Numbered from the stretch's first letter, positions 1 to 22,696 are shown. The stretch is 64,000 nucleotides of DNA from Escherichia coli (GCF_009931435.1 NZ_CP043414.1); one strand, 5' to 3'. The notes: a model not told the origin generated them from the letters alone. A program made the numbers and translations.

Positions 1-893
1 GCGATATGCTCACGGATACCCTGCTGTCAACGGAGGGTGCGCCACACTATCCGGGAATGACTCACCGGCATCAGCTTGCTGACACCGTGGTAAACGGTTT
101 TTCTGCCGATCCACTCCAGGCACTTCAGTCCGAAAGCCTGATTACCGCGGGCGATCCGCTTTCAGGCATTGCGGCTGTCCGGCCATCGGCACCGCTGTCC
201 GATCCGGCAAGTAATGGGGGGATCAATACGCCGTTTATGGATCTGCCGCCCATTTATGCCAGCCCCGGCGAGCGTAATGATGACGTCTCTGTGGCAGAAA
301 TGGCGCAACGCCACCTTGCGGTCACCCCCTTACTGCGCGGCCTTGGCGGCTCGCTTACCGTGAGCAATTCCGACGATGCGGATGATTTTCTGGAGGAGGC
401 CGGACGCACGTTACAGGCCGCAATAAAAGGTCTGCTTGATTTGCAGCAGCAGCGTAACAGCCTCTCAGACAAACATTTGCGCCCGCTGGAAGATAACCCG
501 CTGCGCCTGAACATGGATTACGCCACCGCGCTCGACGTGATGTTTGCCGAAGGTAAAAGTCCGGTACATCTGGCGGCTCCCGCCGCTGTCAGTGAAAGCC
601 TGCGCAATGTCCGCCACCACGAAGAAGCTAACCGGGCGGCGATTGTGGAGTCGCTTCGTGTCCTGCTGGACGCCTTCTCACCACAAAATCTGCTGCGCCG
701 CTTTGTGCAGTACCGCCGCAGCCATGAACTGCGCCAGCCGCTGGATGATGCCGGAGCATGGCAAATGTACAGCCATTATTACGAAGAGCTGGCCTCTGAT
801 CGCCAGCAGGGGTTTGAGATGCTGTTTAACGAGGTCTACGCCCAGGTCTATGACCGGGTGCTTCGTGAAAAACAGCGGGAGCCGGAAGCATGA
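1..893 (+). CDS. T6SS cluster protein, 5'-truncated by the window edge; possibly the C-terminal part of an FHA-domain TagH-like protein
   Basis: Open frame runs to the window start and ends in an ATGA overlap with the next gene at 890-893. Position is immediately upstream of tssJ, as fha is in Vibrio-type vas clusters. No diagnostic motif lies in the visible part, so identity is inferred from context only. Confidence 0.4.
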   Translation, partial: DMLTDTLLSTEGAPHYPGMTHRHQLADTVVNGFSADPLQALQSESLITAGDPLSGIAAVRPSAPLSDPASNGGINTPFMDLPPIYASPGERNDDVSVAEMAQRHLAVTPLLRGLGGSLTVSNSDDADDFLEEAGRTLQAAIKGLLDLQQQRNSLSDKHLRPLEDNPLRLNMDYATALDVMFAEGKSPVHLAAPAAVSESLRNVRHHEEANRAAIVESLRVLLDAFSPQNLLRRFVQYRRSHELRQPLDDAGAWQMYSHYYEELASDRQQGFEMLFNEVYAQVYDRVLREKQREPEA

Positions 894-1414
894 ACAGGAA
901 GGCGTTTCTGGCCTGCGTGCTGATGTGCGTCATATTAACCGGCTGCGAAACGGCGAAAAAAATCAGCGAGGTGATCAAAAACCCGGATATCCAGGTCGGG
1001 AGCCTGAAGGAGCAACCTTCGGAAATAACCGTCACCCTGCTGACTGAACCGGACACTAATACCAATGCGGAGGGTGAATCAGCCGCCGTGGATGTGCAAC
1101 TGGTGTACCTGACGGACGACTCAAAATTGCAGGCAGCCGACTATGACCAGATAGCCAGTACGCCGCTACCGGATGTGCTGGGTAAAAACTATATCGACCA
1201 CCAGGATTTCAACCTGTTGCCGGACACCATCAAAACCCTGCCGCTGGTAAAGCTGGATGAGAAAACGCAGTTTATTGGTGTCGTGGCCTATTTCTCCGAT
1301 GACCAGGCCACGGAATGGAAACAAATCGAGACGGTGGAAGGAACCGGCCACCATTACCGCCTGCTGGTGCATGTACGTCAAAGCAGCATCGAAATGAAAA
1401 AAGAGGATGAATAA
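890..1414 (+). CDS. tssJ: T6SS outer-membrane lipoprotein TssJ
   Basis: 174 aa with signal peptide and lipobox (LTGC) at the N-terminus; size and position directly upstream of tssK-tssL fit TssJ; 4-nt overlap with the upstream gene. Confidence 0.75.
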   Translation: MNRKAFLACVLMCVILTGCETAKKISEVIKNPDIQVGSLKEQPSEITVTLLTEPDTNTNAEGESAAVDVQLVYLTDDSKLQAADYDQIASTPLPDVLGKNYIDHQDFNLLPDTIKTLPLVKLDEKTQFIGVVAYFSDDQATEWKQIETVEGTGHHYRLLVHVRQSSIEMKKEDE

Positions 1415-1416
1415 GT

Positions 1417-2748
1417 ATGGCAACCACCCGCAACAAGGTGATGTGGCAGGAAGGGATGCTGATGCGCCCACACCATTTCCAGCAACAGCAGCGTTACAAC
1501 GACTACCTGGATAACCAGCGTTTCCGGGCCATGAATGATTTATCCTGGGGATTTACCGAACTCACCCTCAACAATGAACTGCTGGCGCAGGGTAAGATCA
1601 TGATTGACAGCGCGTCAGGCACACTGCCCGACGGCACCGTCTTTTCTATCCCCGACCAGGACGCACTGCCCGATCCGCTGCACCCGCAAAATTTTCCGGA
1701 CGAAAGAAGCCGCAATATCTACCTCGCTCTGCCGGTCGCCAGTGATGTGAGAAATGAAATCAGCGACGGGCGGCGAATCGGGCGTTACCGGCTGAATTAT
1801 GCCGATGTCCGGGATTTGCATTCAGAAGAAGGCGACGCGCGAACACTGACGCTGGGACAACTGACGCCGCGCATTATGAGCGGTGCAGAAGATATGAGCG
1901 CCTATATCACGCTCCCGCTTTGCCGTATCAGCGATCGCCATGCCGACGGCTCCCTGACGCTGGATGACGATTTTATCCCCTCCTGCCAGAATATTCAGGT
2001 CAGTAAGAAACTGCGTGTTTATCTCAAAGAGGTACAGGGGGCCATTAGCGGACGGGCAAGCGATCTGGCAAACCGTATTGGCTCTCCGGCGCAGAGCGGC
2101 ATCGCGGATGTGGCGGAATTTATGATGTTGCAGTTGCTTAACCGTAACCAGACCCGGTTTACCCATCGCGCCCGCCGATCCCAGCTCCACCCGGAAGATT
2201 TCTACCTTGATCTTGCCGGGTTGCTGGGTGAACTGATGACCTTTACCGAGCCGTCGCGCCTGCCCTGCCCGCTTGATGTGTATGATCATCATGACCTGAC
2301 CAAAACATTTAAAACACTGTTACCGGAAGTCAAACGGGCGCTGCATACCGTACTGTCGCCAAGAGCCGTCAATCTGCCGCTGCATCTGCGTGACGGTATC
2401 TGGCAGGCCGATATCCATGACTCGGAACTGCTGCAATCTGCCACCTTTGTGCTGGCCGTGGCGGCAAATATGCCGGTCGATCAGATCCAGCGCCAGTTTA
2501 TCCAGCAGTCGAAAATTTCCTCGCCGGAAAAAATCCGCAATATGGTCAGTGTGCAGATCCCCGGCATTCCATTGCGTGCCCTGATGGTGGCTCCCCGTCA
2601 GCTTCCCTACCATTCCGGGTTCAGCTATTTCGAACTCGACAAGAGCGGACAGTCCTGGACAGAAATGGCTGCCGCCGGGGGCGTTGCGCTGCATGTATCC
2701 GGCAGTTTCCCGGATCTGAACATGCAACTGTGGGCGATAAGAGGGTAA
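1417..2748 (+). CDS. tssK: T6SS baseplate protein TssK
   Basis: 443 aa; N-terminus (NKVMWQEGMLMRPHHFQQQQRY) matches the conserved TssK N-terminal signature; purine-rich RBS upstream. Confidence 0.85.
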   Translation: MATTRNKVMWQEGMLMRPHHFQQQQRYNDYLDNQRFRAMNDLSWGFTELTLNNELLAQGKIMIDSASGTLPDGTVFSIPDQDALPDPLHPQNFPDERSRNIYLALPVASDVRNEISDGRRIGRYRLNYADVRDLHSEEGDARTLTLGQLTPRIMSGAEDMSAYITLPLCRISDRHADGSLTLDDDFIPSCQNIQVSKKLRVYLKEVQGAISGRASDLANRIGSPAQSGIADVAEFMMLQLLNRNQTRFTHRARRSQLHPEDFYLDLAGLLGELMTFTEPSRLPCPLDVYDHHDLTKTFKTLLPEVKRALHTVLSPRAVNLPLHLRDGIWQADIHDSELLQSATFVLAVAANMPVDQIQRQFIQQSKISSPEKIRNMVSVQIPGIPLRALMVAPRQLPYHSGFSYFELDKSGQSWTEMAAAGGVALHVSGSFPDLNMQLWAIRG

Positions 2749-2752
2749 GACG

Positions 2753-3514
2753 ATGGATGAGGGGTCACTGTCTCTGCCACCATTTACCGGATACGACGAA
2801 AAAAGCCAGCGCGACTATCATCTCGCGCTTCGTGGCAACAGCCTGAATCCGATGATCGACGCAGCCACGCCACTCCTCGGTATGGTGATGCGCCTTTCAA
2901 CCATGAACAGCCAGACGATGCCGGAGCATCTTTTTGCACAGGTGGTGACGGATGTTCAGGCCGTGGAGCAACTGCTTCAGGAGCAGGGCTACGAACCGGG
3001 CGTGATTATCTCGTTTCGCTACATCCTCTGCACATTTATTGATGAAGCGGCGCTCGGTAACGGCTGGTCGAACAAGAACGAGTGGATCAAACAGTCATTG
3101 CTGGTCCATTTCCACAACGAAGCCTGGGGTGGCGAGAAAGTTTTCATCCTGCTGGAGCGCCTGATCCGTGAACCCAAACGTTACCAGGATCTGCTGGAAT
3201 TTCTCTGGCTCTGTTTTTCTCTGGGATTTCGCGGGCGCTACAAAGTGGCAGCACAGGATCAGGGGGAATTTGAGCAGATCTACCGCCGCCTGTACCACGT
3301 TCTGCATAAACTGCGCGGCGATGCCCCTTTCCCGCTGTTACACCAGGACAAAAAAACCCAGGGCGGGCGTTATCAGCTCATCAGTCGCCTGACCATTAAA
3401 CATATTTTTTGTGGTGGCGTTGTCGTGCTGGCGTTGTTTTACCTGTTCTATCTGTTGCGGCTGGACAGCCAGACGCAGGACATCCTGCACCAGCTAAACA
3501 AATTACTTCGATAA
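2753..3514 (+). CDS. tssL: T6SS membrane-complex protein TssL (DotU family)
   Basis: 253 aa with a single C-terminal hydrophobic helix (GGVVVLALFYLFYLL), typical DotU/TssL architecture; follows tssK. Confidence 0.8.
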   Translation: MDEGSLSLPPFTGYDEKSQRDYHLALRGNSLNPMIDAATPLLGMVMRLSTMNSQTMPEHLFAQVVTDVQAVEQLLQEQGYEPGVIISFRYILCTFIDEAALGNGWSNKNEWIKQSLLVHFHNEAWGGEKVFILLERLIREPKRYQDLLEFLWLCFSLGFRGRYKVAAQDQGEFEQIYRRLYHVLHKLRGDAPFPLLHQDKKTQGGRYQLISRLTIKHIFCGGVVVLALFYLFYLLRLDSQTQDILHQLNKLLR

Positions 3515-3522
3515 GGACGTTT

Positions 3523-6282
3523 ATGATCCAGATTGATCTTCCCACGCTGGTAAAACGGCTTAACCTGTTCTCCCGCCAGGCGCTGGAGATGGCCGCCTCT
3601 GAATGTATGAGCCAGCAGGCAGCGGAAATTACCGTCAGCCATGTGCTTATTCAGATGCTCGCCATGCCACGCAGTGACCTGCGGGTTATTACCCGCCAGG
3701 GCGATATTGGCATGGAAGAGTTGCGCCAGGCGCTGACGGTGGAGAACTACACAACCGCCCGTTCTGCGGACAGCTACCCGGCGTTTTCCCCGATGCTGGT
3801 TGAGTGGCTGAAAGAGGGCTGGCTGCTGGCGTCGGCTGAGATGCAGCACAGCGAACTGCGCGGCGGCGTGTTGCTGCTGGCCCTGCTGCATTCGCCGCTG
3901 CGTTATATACCGTCTGCTGCCGCCCGGCTGTTGACCGGCATTAACCGTGACCGTCTGCAACAGGACTTTGTGCAGTGGACACAGGAGTCGACGGAATCAG
4001 TCGTGCCGGATGCAGACGGTAAAGGCGCAGGCACACTGACGGATGCTGCTGACACCCAGCTTGCCCGCTACGCCAAAAACATGACCGAAGATGCCCGTAA
4101 CGGCAGGCTTGACCCGGTACTGTGCCGCGACCACGAAATCGACCTGATGATCGACATTCTCTGCCGCCGCCGTAAAAATAACCCGGTGGTGGTGGGCGAA
4201 GCAGGCGTGGGTAAAAGCGCGCTGATTGAAGGGCTGGCGCTGCGCATCGTGGCAGGCCAGGTGCCGGACAAACTGAAAAACACCGATATCATGACCCTTG
4301 ACCTGGGCGCATTGCAGGCCGGGGCATCGGTGAAGGGCGAGTTTGAAAAACGCTTCAAGGGGCTGATGGCGGAGGTCATTTCCTCCCCGGTGCCAGTCAT
4401 TCTGTTTATCGACGAAGCGCATACCCTGATTGGGGCGGGCAACCAGCAGGGCGGGCTGGATATCTCCAACCTGCTCAAACCGGCGCTGGCGCGCGGCGAG
4501 CTGAAAACCATCGCCGCCACCACCTGGAGCGAGTACAAAAAATACTTCGAGAAAGACGCTGCCCTGTCGCGCCGCTTCCAGTTGGTGAAGGTCAGCGAAC
4601 CCAACGCCGCCGAAGCCACCATTATTCTGCGTGGTCTGTCGGCGGTCTATGAACAGTCTCACGGCGTACTGATTGATGATGACGCCTTGCAGGCCGCTGC
4701 GACATTAAGTGAGCGTTATCTCTCCGGGCGTCAGTTGCCGGACAAAGCGATTGATGTGCTGGATACGGCCTGCGCCCGCGTGGCAATCAACCTGTCATCG
4801 CCACCAAAGCAAATCTCAGCGCTGACCACCCTGAGCCACCAGCAGGAGGCGGAAATTCGCCAGCTTGAGCGCGAGCTTCGCATCGGGCTGCGTACCGACA
4901 CCTCGCGGATGACGGAGGTGCTGGTGCAGTATGATGAAACGCTGACGGCGCTGGACGAACTGGAAGCCGCCTGGCATCAGCAACAGACGCTGGTACAGGA
5001 AATTATCGCGCTGCGCCAGCAGTTGCTGGGTATGGCAGAAGACGATGCGGCGTCGTTGCCGGACGCAGATGCCGTGGGGGATATGCCGTCGGAGTCAGAG
5101 CAGGATAATACCGGTGCCGCACCGGCTGATGAAGCTGGCAGCGCACAGCCGGAAGAAACCGCTGAAACAGTTTCCCCGGTACAACGGCTGGCACAGCTTA
5201 CTGCCGAACTGGACGCCCTGCATAACGACCGGTTGCTGGTCTCCCCGCACGTCGATAAAAAACAGATTGCGGCGGTGATTGCCGAATGGACCGGCGTGCC
5301 GCTTAACCGCCTGTCGCAGAATGAAATGTCGGTCATCACCGACCTGCCAGTATGGCTGGGCGACACCATCAAAGGCCAGGACCTGGCGATTGCCAGCCTG
5401 CATAAACATCTGCTGACCGCACGCGCCGACCTGCGCCGTCCGGGACGCCCGCTTGGCGCGTTCCTGCTGGCTGGCCCCAGCGGCGTGGGTAAAACCGAAA
5501 CCGTCCTGCAACTGGCAGAGCTTCTCTACGGTGGTCGCCAGTACCTGACCACCATCAATATGTCCGAGTTCCAGGAGAAGCACACCGTCTCGCGGCTGAT
5601 TGGTTCCCCTCCGGGCTATGTCGGCTATGGTGAAGGCGGCGTGCTGACCGAAGCCATCCGCCAGAAACCCTACTCAGTGGTGCTCCTCGATGAAGTGGAA
5701 AAAGCGCACCCGGATGTGCTCAACCTGTTCTACCAGGCGTTTGACAAGGGCGAGATGGCAGACGGCGAAGGCCGCCTGATTGACTGTAAAAACATCGTCT
5801 TCTTCCTCACCTCCAACCTTGGCTACCAGGTGATTGTCGAACACGCCGATGACCCGGAGACCATGCAGGAAGCCCTCTATCCGATGCTGGCGGACTTCTT
5901 TAAACCTGCCCTGTTGGCGCGTATGGAAGTGGTGCCGTACCTGCCTCTGTCGAAAGAGACGCTCGCCACCATTATTGCCGGGAAACTCACCCGTCTGGAT
6001 AACGTGCTGCGCAGTCGCTTTGGTGCGGAAGTGATTATTGAGCCGGAAGTGACGGACGAAATTATGAGCCGCGTCACCCGAGCGGAAAACGGCGCAAGGA
6101 TGCTCGAATCAGTCATCGACGGCAACATGCTGCCGCCGCTCTCGCTGCTGCTGTTGCAGAAGATGGCAGCCAACACGGCGATTGCCCGGATTCGTCTGTC
6201 GGCGGCAGACGGTGCATTCACAGCAGACGTGGAAGATGCTCAGGACGACGAGTCCGTCACAGAGGATGAAACGGTTTTATGA
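3523..6282 (+). CDS. clpV: T6SS AAA+ ATPase ClpV (TssH)
   Basis: Two AAA+ modules with Walker A motifs GEAGVGKS and GPSGVGKT and ClpB-like architecture. Start placed at ATG 3523 (MIQIDLPTLVKRLN), downstream of the tssL stop; the ORF-track start at 3409 overlaps tssL and is rejected. Confidence 0.9.
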   Translation: MIQIDLPTLVKRLNLFSRQALEMAASECMSQQAAEITVSHVLIQMLAMPRSDLRVITRQGDIGMEELRQALTVENYTTARSADSYPAFSPMLVEWLKEGWLLASAEMQHSELRGGVLLLALLHSPLRYIPSAAARLLTGINRDRLQQDFVQWTQESTESVVPDADGKGAGTLTDAADTQLARYAKNMTEDARNGRLDPVLCRDHEIDLMIDILCRRRKNNPVVVGEAGVGKSALIEGLALRIVAGQVPDKLKNTDIMTLDLGALQAGASVKGEFEKRFKGLMAEVISSPVPVILFIDEAHTLIGAGNQQGGLDISNLLKPALARGELKTIAATTWSEYKKYFEKDAALSRRFQLVKVSEPNAAEATIILRGLSAVYEQSHGVLIDDDALQAAATLSERYLSGRQLPDKAIDVLDTACARVAINLSSPPKQISALTTLSHQQEAEIRQLERELRIGLRTDTSRMTEVLVQYDETLTALDELEAAWHQQQTLVQEIIALRQQLLGMAEDDAASLPDADAVGDMPSESEQDNTGAAPADEAGSAQPEETAETVSPVQRLAQLTAELDALHNDRLLVSPHVDKKQIAAVIAEWTGVPLNRLSQNEMSVITDLPVWLGDTIKGQDLAIASLHKHLLTARADLRRPGRPLGAFLLAGPSGVGKTETVLQLAELLYGGRQYLTTINMSEFQEKHTVSRLIGSPPGYVGYGEGGVLTEAIRQKPYSVVLLDEVEKAHPDVLNLFYQAFDKGEMADGEGRLIDCKNIVFFLTSNLGYQVIVEHADDPETMQEALYPMLADFFKPALLARMEVVPYLPLSKETLATIIAGKLTRLDNVLRSRFGAEVIIEPEVTDEIMSRVTRAENGARMLESVIDGNMLPPLSLLLLQKMAANTAIARIRLSAADGAFTADVEDAQDDESVTEDETVL

Positions 6283-7022
6283 GCAGGTTGCGCGTTTTCC
6301 GGCAGACAGGATGGTTTATCGCGGGCCTGATGGCGGGCTTACCCGCCAGTGCCGCGCCCGCAGAAACATCGTCAGTGGCCGGTGTGGCGGTAGCTGTCGC
6401 CACAGCGACACCGCCGGATGCGACAGCCACGTTACAGGCCATGCGGTCCTGTCGCCAGGAGACGGCGGCGCTGGAGCGGCTTGACTGCTATGACCGCCTG
6501 CTGGCACCCCTTTCTCCGTCAGGGTTTGACGGGGCGCTGGTCAAAGCCGGTTTTGTGGGCGAGGCCTGGACCCGCGCCACAGAGCAGGAAAAACGCCGCC
6601 AGGGCAACACCACAGAGCTGCTGGTGACGCAGGTGCCGGGAGAACGCCCGACGGTGGTGGTAACCACCCCGGCTATCGGCCATGTTCCGCCTCGCCCGGT
6701 GCTGATGTTCAGCTGTGTGGACAATATCACCCGGATGCAGGTGGCGCTGGTGCACCCTCTGGATGTCCATGATATCGCCGTCACCCTGAATGCCGACAGC
6801 CGGGTATTGCGCAGCCACTGGTTTGTGCGCGAGAACGGCACCCTGCTGGAGTCCAGCCGGGGGCTGTCCGGGATTGATGAAATTAAGCAACTGTTCGGCG
6901 CAAAAACGCTGACGGTGGATACCGGCGCAGATAACGCCGCCGGAAAGCTGACCTTTAACATTGACGGGCTAGCAAGGGCGATTGCCCCCCTGCGCGATGC
7001 CTGCCACTGGGCGGGAGAATAA
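6279..7022 (+). CDS. T6SS-associated secreted/periplasmic protein, VasI-like
   Basis: 247 aa with N-terminal signal peptide; occupies the vasI position between clpV and tssA; ATGA start/stop overlap with clpV. Confidence 0.55.
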   Translation: MSRLRVFRQTGWFIAGLMAGLPASAAPAETSSVAGVAVAVATATPPDATATLQAMRSCRQETAALERLDCYDRLLAPLSPSGFDGALVKAGFVGEAWTRATEQEKRRQGNTTELLVTQVPGERPTVVVTTPAIGHVPPRPVLMFSCVDNITRMQVALVHPLDVHDIAVTLNADSRVLRSHWFVRENGTLLESSRGLSGIDEIKQLFGAKTLTVDTGADNAAGKLTFNIDGLARAIAPLRDACHWAGE

Positions 7023-7026
7023 AAAT

Positions 7027-8442: not shown

Positions 8443-8460
8443 AAGAGAACAGGAGTTTTT

Positions 8461-11400
8461 GTGTTCAGATTACCAACACCCCGACTATTCAGCGGACTCA
8501 AATCAGCCCTGCGCCCGGCGATGCCCCGGTTTAAAGTTTCTGCATTCTGGCTGCTGATACTGGCGTGGATTTTCCTGCTGGTATGGATCTGGTGGAAAGG
8601 CCCGGCATGGACGCTGGATGAAGAGCAGTGGCTCAAACCACTGGCGAACCGCTGGCTGGCAACGGCGGCGTGGGGGATTATTGCCCTGGTGTGGCTTACC
8701 GTCCGGGTAATGAAGCGCCTGCAACAGCTTGAAAAAATGCAAAAGCAACAGCGCGAGGAAGCCGTTGATCCGCTCAGTGTGGAACTGAACGCCCAGCAGC
8801 GTTACCTCGACCGCTGGCTGCTGCGCCTGCAACGCCATCTCGACAACCGCCGTTTCCTGTGGCAGTTGCCGTGGTATATGGTCATCGGTCCTGTGGGCAG
8901 TGGCAAAACGACACTGCTGCGCGAGGGGTTTCCGTCAGACATTATTTATGCCCCGGAGGGCGCGCACGGCGCAGAACAACGCCTGTACCTCACGCCCCAT
9001 GTCGGTAAACAGGCGGTGATCTTTGATATCGACGGCACACTCTGCGCTCCCGCTGATGCGGATATCCTGCATCGCCGTCTGTGGGAACATGCCCTCGGCT
9101 GGCTGAAGGAAAAGCGCGCGCGCCAGCCGCTGAACGGGATTATTCTGACACTCGATTTACCCGATCTGCTGACCGCAGACAAACGCCGCCGCGAGCATCT
9201 GTTACAGACGCTGCGCAGCCGCTTACAGGATATACGCCAGCATCTTCATTGCCAGTTACCGGTTTACGTGGTACTGACCCGGCTTGATTTATTGCAGGGT
9301 TTTGCCGCCCTGTTTCAGTCACTGAACAGACAGGATCGCGATGCGATTCTGGGTGTTACGTTCACCCGCCGTGCTCATGAAAATGATGACTGGCGAACAG
9401 AGTTGAATGCTTTCTGGCAGACATGGGCGGATCGAATGAATCTGGCGTTGCCGGATCTGATGGTCACCCAGACTCACACCCGCGCGTCTTTATTTAGTTT
9501 TTCCCGCCAGATGCAGGGAAGCCGTGAACCGCTGATATCACTGCTGGAGGGTCTGCTTGACGGCGAAAATATGAACGTGATGCTGCGTGGTGTCTATCTC
9601 ACCTCTTCGCTTCAGCGTGGACAGATGGATGATATATTCACCCAGTCTGCTGCCCGCCAGTACCGACTGGGCAATAACCCACTGGCGTCCTGGCCTCTGG
9701 TGGACACCGCGCCTTATTTCACCCGCAGCCTGTTCCCGCAGGCATTACTCGCAGAGCCTAATCTGGCAACAGAGAGCCGCGCCTGGCTGATGCGTTCCCG
9801 TCGCCGCCTGACGGTTTTCTCTGCCACAGGCGGCGTGGCGGCACTGCTGCTCATCACCGGCTGGAATCACTATTACAACGGTAACTATCAGTCCGGCATC
9901 ACCGTGCTTAAGCAGGCCAAAGCCTTTATGGACGTGCCGCCTCCGCAGGGGGAAGATGACTTTGGTAACCTACAACTGCCGCTGCTGAACCCGGTACGCG
10001 ATGCCACACTGGCCTATGGCGACTGGGGTGACCGCAGCCGCCTGGCCGATATGGGACTGTACCAGGGGCGACGTATCGGGCCTTATGTGGAACAGACCTA
10101 TCTGCAACTGCTGGAGCAGCGTTACCTGCCCTCGCTGTTTAACGGGCTGGTCAAAGCGATGAACGCCGCACCGCCGGAGAGTGAGGAAAAACTCGCGGTG
10201 CTGCGCGTGATGCGAATGCTGGAGGACAAAAGCGGACGCAACAATGAGGTGGTGAAGCAGTATATGGCAAAACGCTGGAGCGAAAAGTTCCACGGACAGC
10301 GCGATATCCAGACACAACTGATGTCCCATCTTGACTACGCGCTGGCTCATACTGACTGGCATGCAGAGCGTCAGGCGGGCGACGGTGATGCCATCAGCCG
10401 CTGGACGCCATATGACAAGCCTGTTGCGACAGCACAGAAAGAACTGAGCAAACTGCCTGTCTACCAGCGGGTTTACCAGAGCCTGAAAACGCGGGCGCTG
10501 GGCGTTCTTCCTGCTGACCTCAATCTGCGTGACCAGGTAGGGCCAACCTTTGACCAGGTGTTTACATCTGCCGATGATAACAAACTGGTTGTTCCACAGT
10601 TTCTTACCCGTTACGGCCTGCAAAGCTATTTTGTAAAACAGCGCGATGAACTGGTTGAACTGACGGCGATGGATTCCTGGGTACTCAACCTCACCCGCAG
10701 CGTGAAATACAGTGACGCCGACCGCGCGGAAATTCAGCGCCAGTTGACCGAGCAGTATATCAGCGACTACACCGCCACCTGGCGGGCCGGGATGGACAAT
10801 CTCAATATCCGCAATTTTGAGTCCATTGGACAACTGACTGGCACTCTGGAGCAGGTTATCAGCGGCGACCAGCCTTTGCAGCGGGCGCTGACCGTGCTGC
10901 GTGACAACACACAGCCAGGCGTCTTTTCTGAAAAACTCTCTGCCAAAGAGCGGGATGAGGCCCTGGCAGAGCCGGATTACCAGTTACTCACCCGCCTCGG
11001 GCATGAATTCGCCCCGGAAAACAGTACCCTGACAGTACAGAAAGACAAAGAAAGCACGATGCAGGCCGTATACCAGCAGCTCACCGAGTTACACCGCTAC
11101 CTGCTGGCAATCCAGAACGCGCCTGTACCAGGGAGATCGGCGCTGAAAGCCGTGCAGTTAAGGCTTGATCAGAACTGCAGCGATCCAATATTCGCCACCC
11201 GCCAGATGGCAAAAACACTGCCTGCTCCGCTCAACCGCTGGGTAGGCAGGCTGGCTGACCAGGCCTGGCATGTGGTGATGGTGGAAGCCGTTCACTATAT
11301 GGAAGTGGACTGGCGCGACAGCGTGGTGAAACCGTTTAACGAGCAACTGGCAAATAACTATCCGTTTAATCCACGTTCTGCACAGGATGCCTCACTGGAT

Positions 11401-11985
11401 GCCTTCGAACGATTCTTTAAACCGGATGGCGTACTGGATACCTTCTACCAGCAGAACCTGAAACTGTTTATCGACAATGATCTGAGCCTGGAAGACGGCG
11501 ATAACAGCGTCATTATCCGCGAAGATATTATTGCGCAACTGGAAACCGCGCAGAAAATCCGTGACATCTTCTTCAGCAAACAGAACGGTCTGGGAACATC
11601 CTTTGCCGTGGAAACGGTATCGCTTTCCGGCAACAAACGCCGCAGCGTACTGAACCTTGACGGCCAGTTAGTCGATTACAGCCAGGGCCGTAACTATACC
11701 GCCCATCTGGTCTGGCCTAACAATATGCGCGAAGGCAACGAAAGCAAACTGACGCTGGTTGGTGCCAGCGGCGGCGCACCGCGCAGTATCAGCTTCAGCG
11801 GGCCGTGGGCGCAGTTCCGCCTGTTCGGGGCCGGACAACTGACCGGAGTACAGGATGGCAACTTTACCGTGCGCTTTAGCGTGGACGGTGGCGCGATGAC
11901 CTACCGTGTGCATACCGACACCGAGGATAACCCGTTCAGCGGTGGGTTGTTCAGCCAGTTTGGTCTGTCAGACACACTGTACTGA
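8461..11985 (+). CDS. tssM: T6SS membrane-complex protein TssM (IcmF family)
   Basis: 1174 aa; N-terminal transmembrane helices, Walker A NTP-binding motif GPVGSGKTTLL and long periplasmic C-terminal region; GTG start preceded by AGGAG at 8451-8455. Confidence 0.9.
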   Translation: MFRLPTPRLFSGLKSALRPAMPRFKVSAFWLLILAWIFLLVWIWWKGPAWTLDEEQWLKPLANRWLATAAWGIIALVWLTVRVMKRLQQLEKMQKQQREEAVDPLSVELNAQQRYLDRWLLRLQRHLDNRRFLWQLPWYMVIGPVGSGKTTLLREGFPSDIIYAPEGAHGAEQRLYLTPHVGKQAVIFDIDGTLCAPADADILHRRLWEHALGWLKEKRARQPLNGIILTLDLPDLLTADKRRREHLLQTLRSRLQDIRQHLHCQLPVYVVLTRLDLLQGFAALFQSLNRQDRDAILGVTFTRRAHENDDWRTELNAFWQTWADRMNLALPDLMVTQTHTRASLFSFSRQMQGSREPLISLLEGLLDGENMNVMLRGVYLTSSLQRGQMDDIFTQSAARQYRLGNNPLASWPLVDTAPYFTRSLFPQALLAEPNLATESRAWLMRSRRRLTVFSATGGVAALLLITGWNHYYNGNYQSGITVLKQAKAFMDVPPPQGEDDFGNLQLPLLNPVRDATLAYGDWGDRSRLADMGLYQGRRIGPYVEQTYLQLLEQRYLPSLFNGLVKAMNAAPPESEEKLAVLRVMRMLEDKSGRNNEVVKQYMAKRWSEKFHGQRDIQTQLMSHLDYALAHTDWHAERQAGDGDAISRWTPYDKPVATAQKELSKLPVYQRVYQSLKTRALGVLPADLNLRDQVGPTFDQVFTSADDNKLVVPQFLTRYGLQSYFVKQRDELVELTAMDSWVLNLTRSVKYSDADRAEIQRQLTEQYISDYTATWRAGMDNLNIRNFESIGQLTGTLEQVISGDQPLQRALTVLRDNTQPGVFSEKLSAKERDEALAEPDYQLLTRLGHEFAPENSTLTVQKDKESTMQAVYQQLTELHRYLLAIQNAPVPGRSALKAVQLRLDQNCSDPIFATRQMAKTLPAPLNRWVGRLADQAWHVVMVEAVHYMEVDWRDSVVKPFNEQLANNYPFNPRSAQDASLDAFERFFKPDGVLDTFYQQNLKLFIDNDLSLEDGDNSVIIREDIIAQLETAQKIRDIFFSKQNGLGTSFAVETVSLSGNKRRSVLNLDGQLVDYSQGRNYTAHLVWPNNMREGNESKLTLVGASGGAPRSISFSGPWAQFRLFGAGQLTGVQDGNFTVRFSVDGGAMTYRVHTDTEDNPFSGGLFSQFGLSDTLY

Positions 11986-11995
11986 GGAGGCAGGG

Positions 11996-13348
11996 ATGAA
12001 TAGTAACGTACTGACACAAACTATCGTTACCGGCAGTGACCCGCGCGGGCTGCCGGAATTCAGCGCCATCCGCGAGGAAATAAACAAAGCCAGCCACCCG
12101 TCACAGCCTGAGCTGAACTGGAAACTGGTGGAGTCGCTGGCGCTGGCGATTTTTAAAGCTAACGGTGTGGATTTACACACCGCCACCTACTATACGCTTG
12201 CACGGACACGGACACAGGGACTGGCGGGCTTTTGCGAAGGTGCGGAACTGCTGGCGGCAATGGTAAGCCACGACTGGGATAAGTTCTGGCCGCAGGGCGG
12301 CCCGGCGCGTACTGAAATGCTGGACTGGTTTAACTCCCGAACCGGCAATATTCTGCGTCAGCAAATCTCCTTTGCGGAATCCGACCTACCACTGATCTAC
12401 CGCACGGAGCGGGCATTGCAGCTTATCTGCGACAAACTCCAGCAGGTAGAGCTGAAGCGCGTTCCGCGCGTGGAGAATCTGCTCTATTTTATGCAGAACA
12501 CGCGTAAACGGCTTGAACCCCAGCCGAAGAGTAACGCCGAGAACACCTCACAGACCACGGTCAGAACGCTGATTTATGCACCGGAAACAATGGCTTCCTC
12601 CACGCCAGAAGCAGTAGTGCCTCCCCTGCCCGACCTGCCCGAGATGAAAGTGGAAGTGCGCAGTCTGTCAGAAAATCCCCCACAGGCCAGTGTGATGAAG
12701 CAAGGCAGTACGGTAAGAGGGTTTATCGCAGGGATCGTCTGTTCAGTGGCTGTCGCCTCAGCATTGTGGTGGTGGCAGGTCTATCCGGTGCAGCAGCAAC
12801 TGTTACAGGTTAACGACACCGCGCAGGGCGCAGCAACGGTGTGGATGGCCTCACCTGAACTCGAAAACTATGAGCGCAGGTTGCAACAGCTTCTTGGCGT
12901 CTCCCCGGTACAACCGCTGGAAACCGGAATGCAGATGATGCGTGTTGCCGACAGTCGCTGGCCGGAAAGCCTGCAACAGCAACAGGCCTCGACACAATGG
13001 AATGAGGCACTCAAAACCCGCGCACAGAGTAGCCCGCAGTTGCGTGGCTGGTTGCAGACCCGCCAGGACTTACATGCTTTTGCAGATCTCGTGATGCAGC
13101 GCGAGAAAGAGGGACTAACCCTTTCCTATATCAAAAATGTCATCTGGCAGGCGGAGCGGGGACTGGGGCAGGAAACACCCCTGGAATCCCTGCTGACGCA
13201 GTACCAGGATGCCCGTGCACAGAAGCAGAATACAGATGCGCTGGAAAAACAAATTAATGAGCGACTCGAAGGCGTGTTAAGCCGCTGGCTGCTGCTGAAG
13301 AATAACGTCATGGCAGAGGCGGCAACCGGGACCACGACCGGAAAATAA
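11996..13348 (+). CDS. T6SS accessory protein, VasL/TagA-like, membrane-anchored
   Basis: About 450 aa from ATG 11996 with GAGGAGG RBS; one internal hydrophobic helix (FIAGIVCSVAVASALWWW); occupies the vasL position immediately after tssM. Confidence 0.55.
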   Translation: MNSNVLTQTIVTGSDPRGLPEFSAIREEINKASHPSQPELNWKLVESLALAIFKANGVDLHTATYYTLARTRTQGLAGFCEGAELLAAMVSHDWDKFWPQGGPARTEMLDWFNSRTGNILRQQISFAESDLPLIYRTERALQLICDKLQQVELKRVPRVENLLYFMQNTRKRLEPQPKSNAENTSQTTVRTLIYAPETMASSTPEAVVPPLPDLPEMKVEVRSLSENPPQASVMKQGSTVRGFIAGIVCSVAVASALWWWQVYPVQQQLLQVNDTAQGAATVWMASPELENYERRLQQLLGVSPVQPLETGMQMMRVADSRWPESLQQQQASTQWNEALKTRAQSSPQLRGWLQTRQDLHAFADLVMQREKEGLTLSYIKNVIWQAERGLGQETPLESLLTQYQDARAQKQNTDALEKQINERLEGVLSRWLLLKNNVMAEAATGTTTGK

Positions 13349-13371
13349 TTATTTAGTTAAAGGAGATTATC

Positions 13372-13854
13372 ATGGCAAATATGAGTTATTTATCTTTAAG
13401 TGGGGAGACACAAGGGCTGATTTCAGCGGGTTGCTCAACGCTTGACTCTGTCGGAAACAAAGCGCAGTTAGAGCATAAAGATCAGATCATGGTTTATGCG
13501 CTAATGCACTCCATCTCAAGAAGTCAGAATGTCAATCATCATGAACTGGTCATCACCAAGCCTGTTGATAAATCCTCACCGTTGCTGGCAAAAGCACTTA
13601 GTGACAATGAAAAAATGACAGCGTGTGAATTTATACTCTACCGAACCAGTAAAGAGGGCATTAACCAGCCTTACTATAAAATAAATCTGTCAAAAGCCAG
13701 GATATCAAGTATTGATTTTGTCACACCTCATGCTGTTCTGGAAAAAGAACTGGAGCCACAGGAGAGAATTGCCTTTATTTATGAAGATATTTCCTGGGAG
13801 CATACGTTAGCCAGGACGAATGCAATGAGTAAATGGCAGGATCGTGTACAGTAA
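13372..13854 (+). CDS. hcp: T6SS tube protein Hcp (TssD)
   Basis: 160 aa; N-terminus MANMSYLSLSGETQG and overall size match the Hcp family; AAGGAG RBS; lower GC than the upstream core genes. Confidence 0.9.
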   Translation: MANMSYLSLSGETQGLISAGCSTLDSVGNKAQLEHKDQIMVYALMHSISRSQNVNHHELVITKPVDKSSPLLAKALSDNEKMTACEFILYRTSKEGINQPYYKINLSKARISSIDFVTPHAVLEKELEPQERIAFIYEDISWEHTLARTNAMSKWQDRVQ

Positions 13855-13896
13855 CATACTGCAATAACATAATAACTTACTATTACGGAGAGATAA

Positions 13897-14811
13897 ATGG
13901 CTGGTTTAAGGAATAATAACAACACACAGAATGCACAGTGGGCTGATTATGTGGGTGACATTCTTCGGGGGTCTCAGCCGATAAACCAGCTAGTACCTCA
14001 GCACCCTTATCTTAACGACATCCCACTCATTGATGAGTTAAGGCGTCAGAACACTCATCATGTTATTCTTTTGACATTTGATGTTGCAAAAAAAATACTC
14101 AACCCAATAACATCATTTGATTACATTCATTTTATCACTACACATCCTTCAGGTATAAAAGATACACTAGCCTGGTTAGTTAACGCGGGTAAATTAATGA
14201 CTGAGTTTGATGAAAATGGGAAAATTATATTTAACCTTAATACCTTAAAGTATACAAAAGCAAGTTACTTTGAAATACTTGGAGAGAAATATATAAAAAT
14301 CACAACATCCAGCCCCTGGCTTTTAGAAAAGCTCGGTAAATATATTTTCTCTTCACGAGCGCCTCAAGTTCTGGAGCTCGCTATTGGCTGGCGAGGAGCT
14401 TTATCTGAATCAATAAAAGGAGTTAAGTTCTGTATCTGGTTTTCAGTAGCCTGGAGAACCATAGAATTTATTATGAGTTCAGAGCGAGATCTGGTTAATT
14501 TTCTTGGTGATTTTTCAATGGATGTGGCCAAAGCAGTGATTGCAGGCGGTGTTGCAACCGCTATTGGAAGCCTGGCTTCTTTTGCCTGTCTTAGTTTTGG
14601 CCTTCCAGTAATTCTTGTAGGAGGAGCAATTTTACTTACAGGGATAGTGTGTACAGTTGTTTTAAATGAAATCGATGCTCAATACCATTTATCAGAAAAA
14701 TTAAAAGATGCAATTAGAGATGGACTAAAACAGCAACAGGAACTTGATAAATGGAAAAGGGAAAACATGACTCCATTTATGTATGTTCTTAACACCCCCC
14801 CCGTGATATGA
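13897..14811 (+). CDS. Hypothetical protein with C-terminal glycine-rich transmembrane helices; candidate T6SS effector
   Basis: 304-aa ORF 42 nt downstream of hcp with RBS; AT-rich; C-terminal third has 2-3 hydrophobic helices with small-residue motifs (VIAGGVATAIGSLASFACLSF, LPVILVGGAILLTGIVCTVVL). The C-terminal 112 codons from an internal ATG at 14473 appear to match what I recall as the K-12 yafU remnant (from memory, unverified). Confidence 0.6.
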   Translation: MAGLRNNNNTQNAQWADYVGDILRGSQPINQLVPQHPYLNDIPLIDELRRQNTHHVILLTFDVAKKILNPITSFDYIHFITTHPSGIKDTLAWLVNAGKLMTEFDENGKIIFNLNTLKYTKASYFEILGEKYIKITTSSPWLLEKLGKYIFSSRAPQVLELAIGWRGALSESIKGVKFCIWFSVAWRTIEFIMSSERDLVNFLGDFSMDVAKAVIAGGVATAIGSLASFACLSFGLPVILVGGAILLTGIVCTVVLNEIDAQYHLSEKLKDAIRDGLKQQQELDKWKRENMTPFMYVLNTPPVI

Positions 14812-14820
14812 GGATTAACT

Positions 14821-15288
14821 ATGTGTTTACATGTTAAATTGAAAGAGTTTCTTTCGATGTTTTTTATAGCCATGTTATTTTTCCCTGCATTCAATGCTTC
14901 TTTGTTTTTTACCGGAATTAAACCTCTATACTCAATAATAAAAGGCTCCACGGAAATATTTTATGATTGGAGAATGTTGATTCTATTCTTCGGTTTCATA
15001 TCGTTTTCCTTGTTAAATATTCATGTAATTTTACTAACGATAATAAAATCATTCTTAATAAAAAAAACAAAGGTAATCAATTTCGCCACAAACATAACAA
15101 TACAGCTAACTCTTATATTTTTACTAATAGCTATCGTAATAGCACCTTTAATAGCTCCTTTTGTCACAGGATATGTCAATGCTAATTATCACCTCTGCGG
15201 TAATAACACGGGGATTTTCCCAGGAGCAATCTATATTAAAAATGGCATGGAATGTAATAATGATTATATTTCTCACAAGGAAGATTAA
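14821..15288 (+). CDS. Small polytopic inner-membrane protein; candidate immunity protein (possibly the ykfM homologue)
   Basis: 155 aa, extremely AT-rich, at least three predicted transmembrane helices; starts 9 nt after the stop of the 304-aa gene. Position relative to yafT and aspV matches my recollection of K-12 ykfM. Confidence 0.55.
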   Translation: MCLHVKLKEFLSMFFIAMLFFPAFNASLFFTGIKPLYSIIKGSTEIFYDWRMLILFFGFISFSLLNIHVILLTIIKSFLIKKTKVINFATNITIQLTLIFLLIAIVIAPLIAPFVTGYVNANYHLCGNNTGIFPGAIYIKNGMECNNDYISHKED

Positions 15289-15429
15289 GCAGTTAAATAT
15301 TATAAAACAAACAGTTTTTAACTCCGGATTCCATGTCCTTTTTTGCACTGTCTTTGTCAGGAAAAAATTTCTTATGCAAAGAATTTTGTATTATTGCCGC
15401 CAGAAATCCCTGCCGGCAGATATAATTTA

Positions 15430-16215
15430 TTATTGATAGCGGTTAACCAAATCTTTTACCATCGCTTTATAGGTCTTTTGCTTAAGTTGCATGATTTGCT
15501 GCTCTGTCATATCAGTCGTACTGGCTTCATTCTTGCCGGGCAATGGTGGAAGCACTTTATATTCATAATTCATCGGCGACCAGGCAGCCCACTCACCTGT
15601 AGCTACATCCACCAGCGTGAATCGCACCAGATAGCGCAGTGAGATTGTGTTAGTCAGTTTTTCATTTTTATAATCGGACCATACTGTTGATTTCAGCGCA
15701 GAGTCATATTTTCCTGTCTGCAACGTATCATGGTAAACAATAATCGCTTTCTGATGCCCTTTCGCAGCCACAAAACGCAATGCCTGCATCCAGTTCATAT
15801 TTTCAGCACTGGCAACATCCTCGTTCTCATTTTTATCTTTATTTTTGTTACAAGTCAGAGGCTTTTGCCTGTCCGGGATACCAGAGAATGTGGAAACAGT
15901 ATAATATTTTCTCATCTCCTCCTGCATAATGGTTTCCGGTGCGCGACTGCCAGACTGGACAAGTATTACGGGAGAATTGAGAGGCACACGAAACTCATCT
16001 CCTTCAAGCGCAGCCTGAATATCCTCCTCGGATACAGCCAGAGTGGTTTCATTACCGAATAAATCTTTGTCTGTCAGTTGCGGGGGAATGTTTTTATTAA
16101 TATTACTTTGTGTAACCTGAGCTTTTTTCTTTTTTTCATCAATAGAAGATTGAGAGGCACATCCTGCAAGCAGCGAGAATAATACACATATGCAACAAAC
16201 CTTTTTTGAATTCAT
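15430..16215 (-). CDS. yafT: Lipoprotein YafT
   Basis: 261 aa with signal peptide and lipobox (LLAGC); size and location next to aspV correspond to yafT of the E. coli backbone. Confidence 0.65.
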
Positions 16216-16482
16216 AATCGGACACTCCCTCGCCTGTCATAATGATTAGAATATTTAGCACTGATAACGGACTCTAATTATATACCCCACTTAAATAATA
16301 ACAAACAAAATCAACATGAAATATACATTCATTTAATCAATATAAAATTATTCTCTAAAAATATATTTAAGTTGAATGGTTCTATATCATTATTGAATTT
16401 TAATAAATGAGACAACAAGAGAGAGTTACACACTTACGCCAGAGTAAAATCATTGAACAGAGAAATTGCGGGATTTAAATGC

Positions 16483-16514
16483 AAAAAAACCGCAAAATTA
16501 AAAATCTTGCGGTT
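16483..16514 (-). terminator. Rho-independent terminator downstream of aspV
   Basis: On the minus strand: inverted repeat AACCGCAA / TTGCGGTT followed by a T-run (plus-strand A-run at 16484-16489). Confidence 0.5.
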
Positions 16515-16540
16515 CTCTGAACTCATTTTCATGAGTGAAT

Positions 16541-16617
16541 TTGGCGGAACGGACGGGACTCGAACCCGCGACCCCCTGCGTGACAGGCAGGTATTCTAAC
16601 CGACTGAACTACCGCTC
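16541..16617 (-). tRNA. aspV: tRNA-Asp (anticodon GUC)
   Basis: 77-nt exact match in reverse complement to E. coli tRNA-Asp (GGAGCGGTAGTTCAGTCGGTTAGAATACCTGCCTGTCACGCAGGGGGTCGCGGGTTCGAGTCCCGTCCGTTCCGCCA). Confidence 0.95.
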
Positions 16618-16750
16618 CGCGTTGTGTTCCGTTGGGAACGAGGCGAATATTACGGATTGCCTCACCCTTCGTCAATGGTTTTTCTCATCTTTTGAATCGT
16701 TTGCTGCAAAAATCGCCCAAGTCGCTATTTTTAGCGCCTTTTACAGGTAT

Positions 16751-17482
16751 TTATGCCCGCCAGAGGCAGCTTCCGCCCTTTTTCTGCACCAGATCGAGAC
16801 GGGCTTCATGTGCCGCAAGCTCTTCATCTGTCGCAAAAACAACGCGTAACTTACTTGCCTGACGCACAATGCGCTGAATTGTTGTTTCACCTTGTTGCTG
16901 TTGTGTCTCTCCTTCCATCGCAAAAGCCATCGACGTTTGACCACCAGTCATCGCCAGATAAACTTCCGCAAGGATCTGGGCATCGAGTAATGCCCCGTGC
17001 AGCGTTCGTTTACTGTTATCTATTTCGTAGCGGGCACATAACGCATCGAGGCTGTTGCGCTTACCGGGAAACATTTTCCTCGCCACCGCAAGGCTATCGG
17101 TGACCTTACAGAAGGTATTGGTCTTCGGAATATCGCGCTTAAGCAACGAAAACTCGTAGTCCATAAAGCCGATATCGAACGCTGCGTTATGGATCACCAA
17201 CTCAGCGCCGCGAATATAGTCCATGAACTCATCGGCTACCTCGGCAAATGTGGGCTTATCGAGCAAAAACTCATCGGCAATACCATGTACGCCAAAGGCT
17301 TCTGGATCCACCAGCCGATCGGGTTTGAGATAAACGTGAAAGTTATTGCCCGTCAGGCGACGGTTCACCACTTCAACGGCACCAATCTCAATGATCTTGT
17401 GGCCTTCATAGTGCGCACCAATCTGGTTCATACCGGTGGTTTCAGTATCGAGAACGATCTGGCGTGTAATTGCAGTGCTCAT
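16751..17482 (-). CDS. dnaQ: DNA polymerase III epsilon subunit (3'-5' proofreading exonuclease)
   Basis: Translation [20 protein letters not shown]... matches DnaQ over the full length; the ORF-track start at 17491 adds three codons, start taken at 17482. Confidence 0.95.
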
Positions 17483-17545
17483 AGCGGTCATTTATGTCAG
17501 ACTTGTCGTTTTACAGTTGATTCAATTACAGGAAGTCTACCAGAG

Positions 17546-18732: not shown

Positions 18733-18762
18733 CACAACCTTCCGTTTCACACTGAGAGGTAA

Positions 18763-19521
<759 letters not shown>

Positions 19522-19592
19522 TAAAACTTTCTTGTCATCGGCTCCGTTCGCCGTTATGATCGGTCGTCTTTTAAGCAACTATTGACACACAC

Positions 19593-20951: not shown

Positions 20952-20964
20952 CAAACCAGATAAT

Positions 20965-20996
20965 AAAAAGGCACCGATTCCCCCGGTGCCTTTTTA
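20965..20996. terminator. Bidirectional rho-independent terminator between convergent mltD and yafE
   Basis: Hairpin GGCACCG-(loop)-CGGTGCC flanked by an A-run upstream and a T-run downstream on the plus strand. Confidence 0.6.
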
Positions 20997-20997
20997 T

Positions 20998-21768: not shown

Positions 21769-21844
21769 TGCGCTGTCCTTTTGTTATTTGATTAAAAAGG
21801 GCAGCGCCAAACGTTGGTCTGCCCTGTGGCAGACCTGACATACC

Positions 21845-22696
<852 letters not shown>

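Follow-up and report, generated by a model that had tools for sequence, protein, structure and literature searches.

What is the run of type VI secretion system (T6SS) genes beside the tRNA gene aspV in this Escherichia coli genome (GCF_009931435.1, NZ_CP043414.1), where does it end, and how did it come to stand there? The window, i.e., the whole 64,000-nt stretch of DNA that was analyzed, carries ten intact same-strand T6SS genes at positions 6-13854, the first of which, tagH, is cut by the window edge. We are highly confident that positions 1-15288 constitute the distal part of the E. coli T6SS-2, the vas-like cluster located between yafV and aspV, together with a Tme/YkfM cassette, and that the whole is an old foreign block.

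The T6SS genes and their described counterparts

On the + strand, the genes read tagH-tssJ-tssK-tssL-tssH/clpV-vasI-tssA-tssM-VasL/TagA-like-hcp, with neighbors overlapping or closely spaced. Family calls relied on curated NCBIfam cut-offs, which nine of the ten genes exceed. All lack internal stops and match their E. coli orthologs over the full length (95-100% amino-acid identity), the edge-cut tagH being represented by 295 residues. These cover positions 139-420 of the 420-position TIGR03354 model and match residues 132-426 of TagH from the E. coli relative L001 at 100% identity; the window edge removes about 131 N-terminal codons. A preliminary description had read the same ten genes, co-directional and in the order fha-tssJ-tssK-tssL-clpV-vasI-tssA-tssM-vasL-hcp. 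The ORFs lie where it placed them, and HMM searches upheld all ten family assignments, nine through NCBIfam and vasL through its two Pfam domains.

Known functions of these families allow roles to be proposed for most parts. TssJ, an outer-membrane lipoprotein (890-1414; TIGR03352, 134.4 bits against a cut-off of 31.6), would form the membrane complex with two inner-membrane subunits, TssL of the DotU family (2753-3514; TIGR03349, 215.7 bits against 90) and TssM of the IcmF family (8521-11985; TIGR03348, 943 bits against 388). All three genes are present above curated cut-offs with intact ORFs, including the 1154-aa TssM, which has no internal stop; tssL, intact here, is frameshifted in L001. 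Likewise above the NCBIfam cut-offs are the putative baseplate subunit TssK (1417-2748; TIGR03353, 456 bits against 100), the cap protein TssA (7027-8442; TIGR03362, 498 bits against 230; match to PDB 6g7b at 2e-85), which would coordinate polymerization of tube and sheath, the tube-building Hcp (hcp or tssD, 13372-13854; TIGR03344, 205 bits against 59), and TssH/ClpV (3523-6282; TIGR03345, 1125 bits against 885), the AAA+ ATPase expected to recycle the contracted sheath. The ATG at 3523 gives a ClpV of 919 aa with no internal stop, whose N-domain matches PDB 3zri (4e-33).

All three markers of the subtype, TagH, VasI, and VasL, were found. The FHA-domain protein TagH (1-893, ORF 6-893; TIGR03354, 246.9 bits against 120) and VasI (6279-7022; TIGR03360, 257 bits against 124), which is restricted to V. 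cholerae-like T6SSs, are probably accessory. The name vasL, given earlier to the ninth gene (11996-13348), is borne out by the Pfam domains ImpA_N (PF06812, 3e-19, residues 12-113) and VasL (PF12486, 4e-23, residues 292-434); its product falls under the TssA cut-offs and has a single hydrophobic segment (residues 239-262). In related systems, TagA/VasL-type membrane proteins stop the extended sheath and hold it at the opposite membrane. The subtype shared by the V. cholerae-like systems and E. coli T6SS-2 is presumably clade i1 of SecReT6-type classifications.

T6SSs linked to aspV have been described in enteroaggregative E. coli 042 (Ec042-0210-0226; PMC2808357), in PAI I of the adherent-invasive strain LF82 (PMC2941450), and in enterohemorrhagic E. 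coli (EHEC) EDL933 (Z0244-Z0272; PMC5363993), and the cluster is named T6SS-2 (PMC12981562). Counting against our overall reading, mainly host-directed roles and an expression kept low by H-NS repression are reported for it (PMC5363993, PMC12981562). The window resembles these clusters, as well as those of ExPEC and APEC, in the yafV-aspV site, gene content, and gene order, and its proteins are 95-100% identical to their orthologs in L001 and O157 Sakai. The aspV T6SS-2 island is thus already known, real but ordinary. Its description dates back to about 2010, and around half of the complete E. coli genomes carry it. The present copy has little importance beyond annotation, for which a correct map that includes the overlooked Tme/YkfM pair is useful.

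Similarity to the V. cholerae vas cluster (VCA0107-VCA0123) was assessed from gene order and content, protein sequence being matched only for the ClpV N-domain (PDB). The shared order is fha-tssJ-tssK-tssL-clpV-...-vasI-tssA-tssM-vasL, and both clusters have VasI (VCA0118) and VasL (VCA0121), accessory genes of narrow distribution that are confined to a subset of T6SSs (PMC3166118). The earlier claim that the two orders are the same holds for this vas-like content and arrangement but not in full. VCA0112-VCA0121 is matched only if vasH is left aside (VCA0117, the sigma-54 activator gene between clpV and vasI), for which the window has no room because vasI starts at 6279, before clpV has ended at 6282; vasH is absent from the T6SS-2 of L001 and Sakai as well. 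After vasL, V. cholerae has VCA0122 and vgrG-3, whereas the window has hcp and the Tme/Tmi cassette, and the hcp genes of V. cholerae lie outside the main cluster (PMC3166118), in contrast to the in-cluster hcp seen here.

Complete islands in relatives and signs of decay

Of 5426 complete E. coli genomes, 2686, i.e., about half, contain at least 80% of window positions 1-16620, in agreement with the earlier view that this content varies between strains. Many E. coli genomes align with the 16.6 kb end to end (100% coverage) at 97.4% identity. The lineage itself is rare: a single genome of the 5426 reaches 99% identity or more across the flanking core genes. Full islands in relatives read yafV-...-hcp-tssB-tssC-tssE-tssF-tssG-tagH-...-hcp-hyp-ykfM-yafT-aspV. 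The window is syntenic with the islands of three relatives (L001, L007, and L008), and only their aspV side falls within it. In the complete islands of L001 and Sakai, tssB, tssC, tssE, tssF, and tssG stand immediately 5' of tagH; vgrG and rhs lie beyond them in Sakai, and none is annotated in L001. In the window strain, the genes for the sheath (tssB, tssC), for the baseplate proteins TssE, TssF, and TssG, and for the VgrG spike would accordingly be expected before window position 1.

The closest relative, 2020CK-00188 (L007; 99.4-99.8% identity), has lost all sequence to the left of window position 170 through an Rhs/ISAs1-associated deletion that took out the genes from tssB onward together with the 5' part of tagH. 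Its tssM carries a frameshifting deletion at about window positions 10782-11089. Because the window ends inside tagH and the only close relative lacks tssBCEFG and has a frameshifted tssM, the apparatus of the window strain could also be incomplete. The cluster might even be a decaying, nonfunctional remnant, as in this relative and O157:H7, kept mainly for its immunity gene. We regard this as unlikely, but as an explanation that deserves weight: besides the two lesions of 2020CK-00188, it draws on the frameshifted tssL of L001, on the description of the EHEC T6SS-2 as degenerate (PMC12981562), and on about 400 complete E. coli genomes that keep ykfM but have lost the effector gene's 5' part. 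Set against it is the state of the window itself, where the ten visible T6SS genes and the effector and immunity genes are all intact. Compared with its closest relative, the window has more of tagH (positions 1-169) and an intact tssM (10782-11089 retained).

The hcp-Tme-ykfM cassette

The block had been described as ending about 2.7 kb from aspV. The hcp stop at 13854 does lie 2.69 kb from the tRNA gene, but the T6SS-related block continues to 15288 with two overlooked + strand genes, one encoding a 304-aa protein (13897-14811) and ykfM (14821-15288), which starts 9 bp past the stop of the former. Both genes are already in the catalog of Fridman et al. 2020: the ortholog of the 304-aa product, WP_022645204.1 (97% identity), is entered there with a Tme domain at residues 122-277 (E 4.65e-37), with Hcp 43 bp upstream and, in the position of ykfM, a downstream gene for a 155-aa protein with three transmembrane (TM) segments (their Supp. 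Data 5). Tme proteins are defined by a near-invariant C-terminal DxxK followed by an Asp-flanked transmembrane helix (PMC7046647). The 304-aa protein has these features: D209-x-x-K212, P237, and D260 are invariant in ten homologs down to 34% identity, and residues 213-261 form a hydrophobic stretch. We therefore predict a Tme-family effector. Members of the Tmi immunity family are expected right behind Tme, with 3-6 TM helices and similarity to DUF1240. YkfM has three hydrophobic segments and shares 49% identity with an L003 protein for which a DUF1240 match is on record, a Pfam scan of YkfM itself giving no match. DUF1240 proteins have been proposed as the Tme immunity proteins, Tmi (PMC7046647), and YkfM is the predicted Tmi of this effector.

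Secretion through the T6SS and membrane disruption from the periplasm have been demonstrated by experiment only for Tme1 and Tme2 of V. parahaemolyticus (PMC7046647). With the Tme/Tmi family (Tme1/Tmi1 and Tme2/Tmi2), the E. coli pair shares the C-terminal Tme domain, the DxxK motif, the hydrophobic helix region, the flanking Asp, a downstream gene for a multi-TM, probably DUF1240-like protein, and a T6SS gene, here hcp, upstream. Unlike its V. parahaemolyticus counterparts, the E. coli member is predicted only, is Hcp linked, and has no recognizable PAAR, MIX, or VgrG loading domain; no known domain was detected in its N-terminal 120 residues. By analogy with the family, the effector would most likely be loaded via the adjacent, cassette-specific Hcp and delivered to the periplasm of a rival, where the DxxK motif and a hydrophobic hairpin may insert into the inner membrane and cause membrane integrity to collapse. 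YkfM, as a probable DUF1240-like inner-membrane protein, would protect the producer.

It is highly improbable that the 304-aa protein and YkfM are instead ordinary housekeeping membrane proteins that happen to stand beside a T6SS. Such a role would accord with the presence of ykfM and a fragment of its neighbor in the T6SS-less K-12, with the lack of Pfam or NCBIfam matches for the two window proteins (nor does the 304-aa protein match any PDB entry), and with a literature search that found no experiments on the pair. It sits poorly with a protein family that is narrow and not core-like, with the Tme motif conserved across distant homologs, and with the proven T6SS tie of the two V. parahaemolyticus members. 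The pair also travels with hcp: in Rahnella bruchi, Tme, DUF1240, and hcp form a stand-alone trio apart from any T6SS core genes, and in O157, pair and hcp 3' part are replaced together.

This replacement delimits the variable cassette to about 13685-15560, since DNA homology to Sakai stops at about 13685 and restarts at about 15561. The 3' part of hcp falls inside it, the encoded Hcp being 55% identical to Sakai Hcp at the same position, and the last ~130 bp of yafT (15430 to about 15560) vary with it. The tail of the O157 T6SS-2 is thus a different cassette, in which the 55%-identical hcp is followed by an unrelated effector/immunity pair. The EHEC pair Etse4/Etsi4 (Z0246-Z0247/Z0245) occupies the same slot, directly 3' of the distal T6SS-2 hcp and before yafT, and Etse4 is a periplasm-acting toxin neutralized by the product of the downstream gene (PMC12981562). 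Sequences differ, with no significant BLASTP match to the 304-aa protein or YkfM, and Etsi4 is a DUF1311 protein whereas YkfM is probably DUF1240-like. Cassettes of the Etse4/Etsi4 type were counted in 365 genomes and those of the window type in at least 2565. Lineages apparently exchange the distal hcp as one unit with the cargo genes that follow it.

The K-12 remnant and the origin of the block

Next to the cassette, yafT (15430-16215, - strand) separates it from aspV. This gene, annotated under the same name in L001 and K-12, encodes a lipoprotein with a signal/lipobox-like N terminus and 95-97% amino-acid identity to the versions of those strains. The tRNA-Asp(GTC) gene aspV follows at 16542-16618 on the - strand (ARAGORN; Rfam RF00005, 67.7 bits).

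K-12 indeed lacks the whole T6SS block, as the preliminary description had stated. Its homology to the window breaks off at 14455, within the effector gene, of which only a 3' stump, known as yafU, is left beside the retained ykfM. Owing to this truncated gene, K-12 looks like a deletion derivative in which the immunity gene was kept. Together with the exchange of hcp and cargo as a unit, this suggests a simple function for ykfM and yafU, neither of which was linked to type VI secretion in any paper found in our literature search. We give roughly even chances to a scheme in which 13685-15560 is a swappable Hcp-specific cassette and the K-12 ykfM an orphan T6SS immunity gene. If so, ykfM, which persists beside the decayed yafU stump in the roughly 400 genomes mentioned above, would shield E. 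coli without a T6SS when the T6SS-2-carrying half of the species attacks with Tme.

A very doubtful account is that of a classical tRNA-targeted island, in which an integrase placed the T6SS block at the aspV 3' end and K-12 retains the empty site: the block does adjoin aspV, has foreign GC content, and is called inserted at aspV in published descriptions (PMC5363993, PMC2941450, PMC2808357), but no tRNA-derived direct repeat of at least 13 nt occurs in the window or in the islands of L001, L007, and L008, no integrase is annotated in the latter three, where only IS, H-repeat, and Rhs elements stand at the yafV side, yafT, also present in K-12, lies between the tRNA and the T6SS genes, and the yafU stump is a deletion scar rather than an empty att site. 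Absent repeat, absent integrase, and K-12 scar largely refute such an integrative insertion. Of the earlier statement that the block is inserted next to aspV, the position stands and the insertion is unsupported; the 25-mer from the tRNA-Asp 3' end that was expected to recur at the far boundary is confined to the two tRNA genes, the second copy being aspU (rrnH, 24763-24839; ARAGORN). Judged from its sequence, the region is an old, compositionally foreign block that E. coli lineages have kept, eroded, or deleted, and not a site-specific integrative element. The T6SS genes have 54-62% GC, the tail 36-45% (36-38% at 14-16 kb), and the flanking core genes about 46-52%.

The aspV-linked T6SS block and its affiliation

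Ten plus-strand ORFs, overlapping or separated by gaps of a few bases, fill window positions 6-13854. Nine of them score above curated NCBIfam cut-offs (TagH, TssJ, TssK, TssL/DotU, TssH/ClpV, VasI, TssA, TssM, and Hcp); the TagH match covers only model positions 139-420 of 420, so this gene is cut by the window edge. The ninth ORF in order falls below the TssA cut-offs and carries Pfam ImpA_N and VasL matches plus one hydrophobic segment, which is the architecture of TagA/VasL. With start codons taken from an annotated relative, no gene of the block contains an internal stop, and the encoded proteins are full length, with 95-100% amino acid identity to E. coli orthologs. The mechanistic roles of these T6SS parts would be those known from their families. 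The tRNA-Asp(GTC) gene aspV follows on the minus strand (16542-16618), and a second tRNA-Asp copy (24763-24839) is part of an rRNA operon. The ORF map and the NCBIfam/Pfam assignments bear out all coordinates, gene names, and the 2.7-kb hcp-aspV distance of the preliminary description. The tRNA was the sole Rfam match in window 1-17000, and scanning 13000-16700 for promoters and terminators gave a result indistinguishable from shuffled sequence, with no terminator-like site seen.

The V. cholerae vas cluster runs VCA0107 vipA, 0108 vipB, 0109-0114, 0115 vasF, 0116 clpV, 0117 vasH, 0118, 0119, 0120 vasK, 0121, 0122, and 0123 vgrG-3 (PMC3166118, Table 1), and its hcp genes are located elsewhere (PMC3166118). 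The vas-like order initially noted for our block stands from fha through vasL apart from vasH, which is absent from the block, where the clpV stop (6282) overlaps the vasI start (6279). It does not extend beyond vasL, which is followed by VCA0122 and vgrG-3 in V. cholerae, whereas the window has hcp there. The accessory genes vasI and vasL, whose distribution is narrow, support a putative V. cholerae-like subtype, which we take to be the one labelled 'i1'.

Of 5426 complete E. coli genomes, 2686 cover at least 80% of window 1-16620 (megablast), in agreement with the earlier view of this block as strain-variable content; the best match reaches 97.4% identity over the whole length. A complete island in E. 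coli CFSAN061771 reads, from the yafV side, yafV, IS, hcp(-), tssB, a hypothetical gene, tssC, tssE, tssF, tssG, tagH, tssJ, tssK, tssL, tssH, vasI, tssA, tssM, vasL, and hcp, and then a hypothetical gene, ykfM, yafT(-), and aspV(-). O157 Sakai shares this core and has additional vgrG, rhs, and ISAs1 elements on the yafV side. Since the window ends inside tagH, we infer the sheath, baseplate, and spike genes of its strain from relatives only, the nearest of which is without them. A cluster of T6SS-2 type also adjoins yafT and dnaQ at 9476-13924 of a locus from GCA_027232745.1, an assembly labelled Salmonella enterica.

The aspV island is already in the literature: PAI I of LF82 is located at AspV (PMC2941450), a 37-kb cluster associated with aspV in EDL933 is repressed by H-NS and secretes KatN (PMC5363993), and the aspV-linked cluster has been named T6SS-2 (PMC12981562). 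The window block thus represents one more instance of a system already described, whose effector/immunity pair had also been assigned bioinformatically. The preliminary description is confirmed as an observation and supported, with corrections, as an interpretation.

A predicted Tme-type effector gene and its neighbors

The stretch between hcp and aspV, initially read as a spacer, holds three genes and has a GC content of 36-38% versus 54-62% for the T6SS core. None of the six candidate ORFs in it matched NCBIfam. The first gene (13897-14811) encodes a 304-amino-acid protein for which Pfam returned nothing significant and a PDB sequence search nothing at E values up to 1. Its family is narrow, comprising proteins from E. 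coli, a 'Salmonella enterica' assembly (63% identity), and Rahnella bruchi (39%), and a few metagenomic sequences. An alignment of 10 homologs, down to 34% identity, left D205, M208, D209, K212, P237, and D260 invariant, and these residues bracket a hydrophobic stretch at 213-261. The protein is 97% identical to WP_022645204.1, annotated in the CFSAN061771 island. This E. coli protein has been assigned a domain of the Tme family (type VI membrane-disrupting effectors) at residues 122-277 (E = 4.65e-37), with Hcp encoded 43 bp upstream and a 155-amino-acid protein with three transmembrane segments 14 bp downstream (PMC7046647, Supplementary Data 5).

The second gene, ykfM (14821-15288), specifies a protein with three hydrophobic segments. 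DUF1240 and DUF1240-like proteins were proposed as the Tmi family of Tme immunity proteins (PMC7046647), and the window's YkfM shares 49% identity with a protein encoded in the Salmonella-labelled locus with a precomputed PF06836 (DUF1240) match. A Pfam scan of YkfM itself gave no match, so its DUF1240/Tmi membership is indirect. The third gene, yafT (15430-16215, minus strand), encodes a lipoprotein that likewise had no match in a Pfam scan, unlike its homolog in the Salmonella-labelled locus, which has a precomputed PF25851 (YafT) match. Limited sensitivity or differing library versions may explain why Pfam matched neither YkfM nor YafT of the window.

Cassette exchange and the K-12 state

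DNA homology between the window and O157 Sakai is lost from about 13685 to about 15561, which indicates that hcp's 3' part was swapped along with the effector gene, the immunity gene, and the final ~130 bp of yafT. As judged from this comparison, ~13685-15560, opposite 3542-5704 of the Sakai locus, is a predicted replaceable cassette. The Sakai distal hcp is just 55% identical to that of the window, and the slot after it harbors an unrelated pair, the effector ECs_0215/0214, equivalent to a split Etse4, and the immunity protein ECs_0213, equivalent to Etsi4 (DUF1311). The O157 effector is a periplasm-acting toxin neutralized by the product of the downstream gene (PMC12981562). For the position behind the distal hcp, Etse4/Etsi4 offers a precedent in function without being orthologous to the window pair; equating it with the 304-amino-acid protein and YkfM was rejected, as BLASTP shows no relationship and Sakai DNA homology breaks across the cassette. 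The O157-type cassette occurs in 365 genomes and the window type in at least 2565.

The notion of hcp-Tme-Tmi as a module has independent support. In Rahnella bruchi, a stand-alone trio of Tme, DUF1240, and hcp(-) genes (10001-11937 of that locus) is embedded among unrelated genes of metabolism and sugar transport, and the nearest 10 kb contain no T6SS core gene. In the Salmonella-labelled locus, two DUF1240 genes, separated by ORFs of 169 and 43 amino acids, follow the Tme homolog; this arrangement may be an array of immunity genes or the decayed remains of a second cassette.

The preliminary description had pointed to a possible tRNA-derived repeat at the island boundary. Its 25-mer was searched in the window with up to 3 mismatches, and every tRNA 13-mer in the window and four loci of other genomes (the K-12 site plus three complete islands); matches fell at tRNA-Asp genes only, and no segment of tRNA-Asp of 13 nt or longer recurred elsewhere in the window or the three complete islands. 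No integrase is annotated in these islands (CFSAN061771, 2020CK-00188, and Sakai).

K-12 does lack the T6SS block, as anticipated. Its homology to the window comprises the core genes, aspV, yafT, and ykfM, and ends within the effector gene, at 14455. Of the effector, K-12 retains the pseudogene yafU, which corresponds to residues 193-304 (112 codons, 95.5% identical), has its hydrophobic hairpin and DxxK motif preserved, and precedes the pseudogene yafF. The neighboring ykfM is intact, and this K-12 segment (4258-5085 of its locus) corresponds to window 14455-15288. Because homology ends inside the effector gene, leaving yafU and ykfM, K-12 appears to be a deletion derivative with the immunity gene kept. 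Among complete E. coli genomes, 3016 contain ykfM and 2609 contain the effector gene's 5' part, so that about 400 genomes are K-12-like in this respect, with an apparently orphan immunity gene. K-12 ykfM/yafU can be read as a putative orphan immunity gene of the T6SS with a decayed effector at its side; the literature searched contained no such statement, and this reading is the sole mildly new angle of the analysis.

Erosion in relatives and the lineage of the window strain

Erosion of T6SS-2 is common. The tssL gene is frameshifted in CFSAN061771, in O157 tssA is a pseudogene and the effector is split, and EDL933 shows a frame change in tssM (PMC12981562). The sole close relative of the window strain, 2020CK-00188 (99.4-99.8% identical), retains none of the sequence to the left of window position 170; an Rhs C-terminal remnant and an ISAs1 transposase lie at the junction. 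Its tssM carries a frameshifting deletion of window positions about 10782-11089, within 10768-11103, flanked by 14-mers that match at 13 of 14 nt (TACACCGCCACCTG / TACACCGCTACCTG). The regions of the two lesions lie at 5784-7223 and 15574-18686 of the 2020CK-00188 locus, and neither lesion is present in the window strain.

Across the flanking core genes at 16700-24700, a single genome among the 5426 complete E. coli genomes, 2020CK-00188, shows 99% identity or more, the next best reaching 98.5%; the window therefore represents an uncommon, rarely sequenced E. coli lineage. From glnD/map to aspV, it is collinear with K-12 in reverse orientation, at about 97.2-97.8% identity. Outside the island, this collinearity breaks only at 21605-21801, in the yafE methyltransferase region, where the window has a 256-amino-acid ORF and the K-12 yafE is shorter, and at 37590-37713, between nlpE and yaeF (intergenic).
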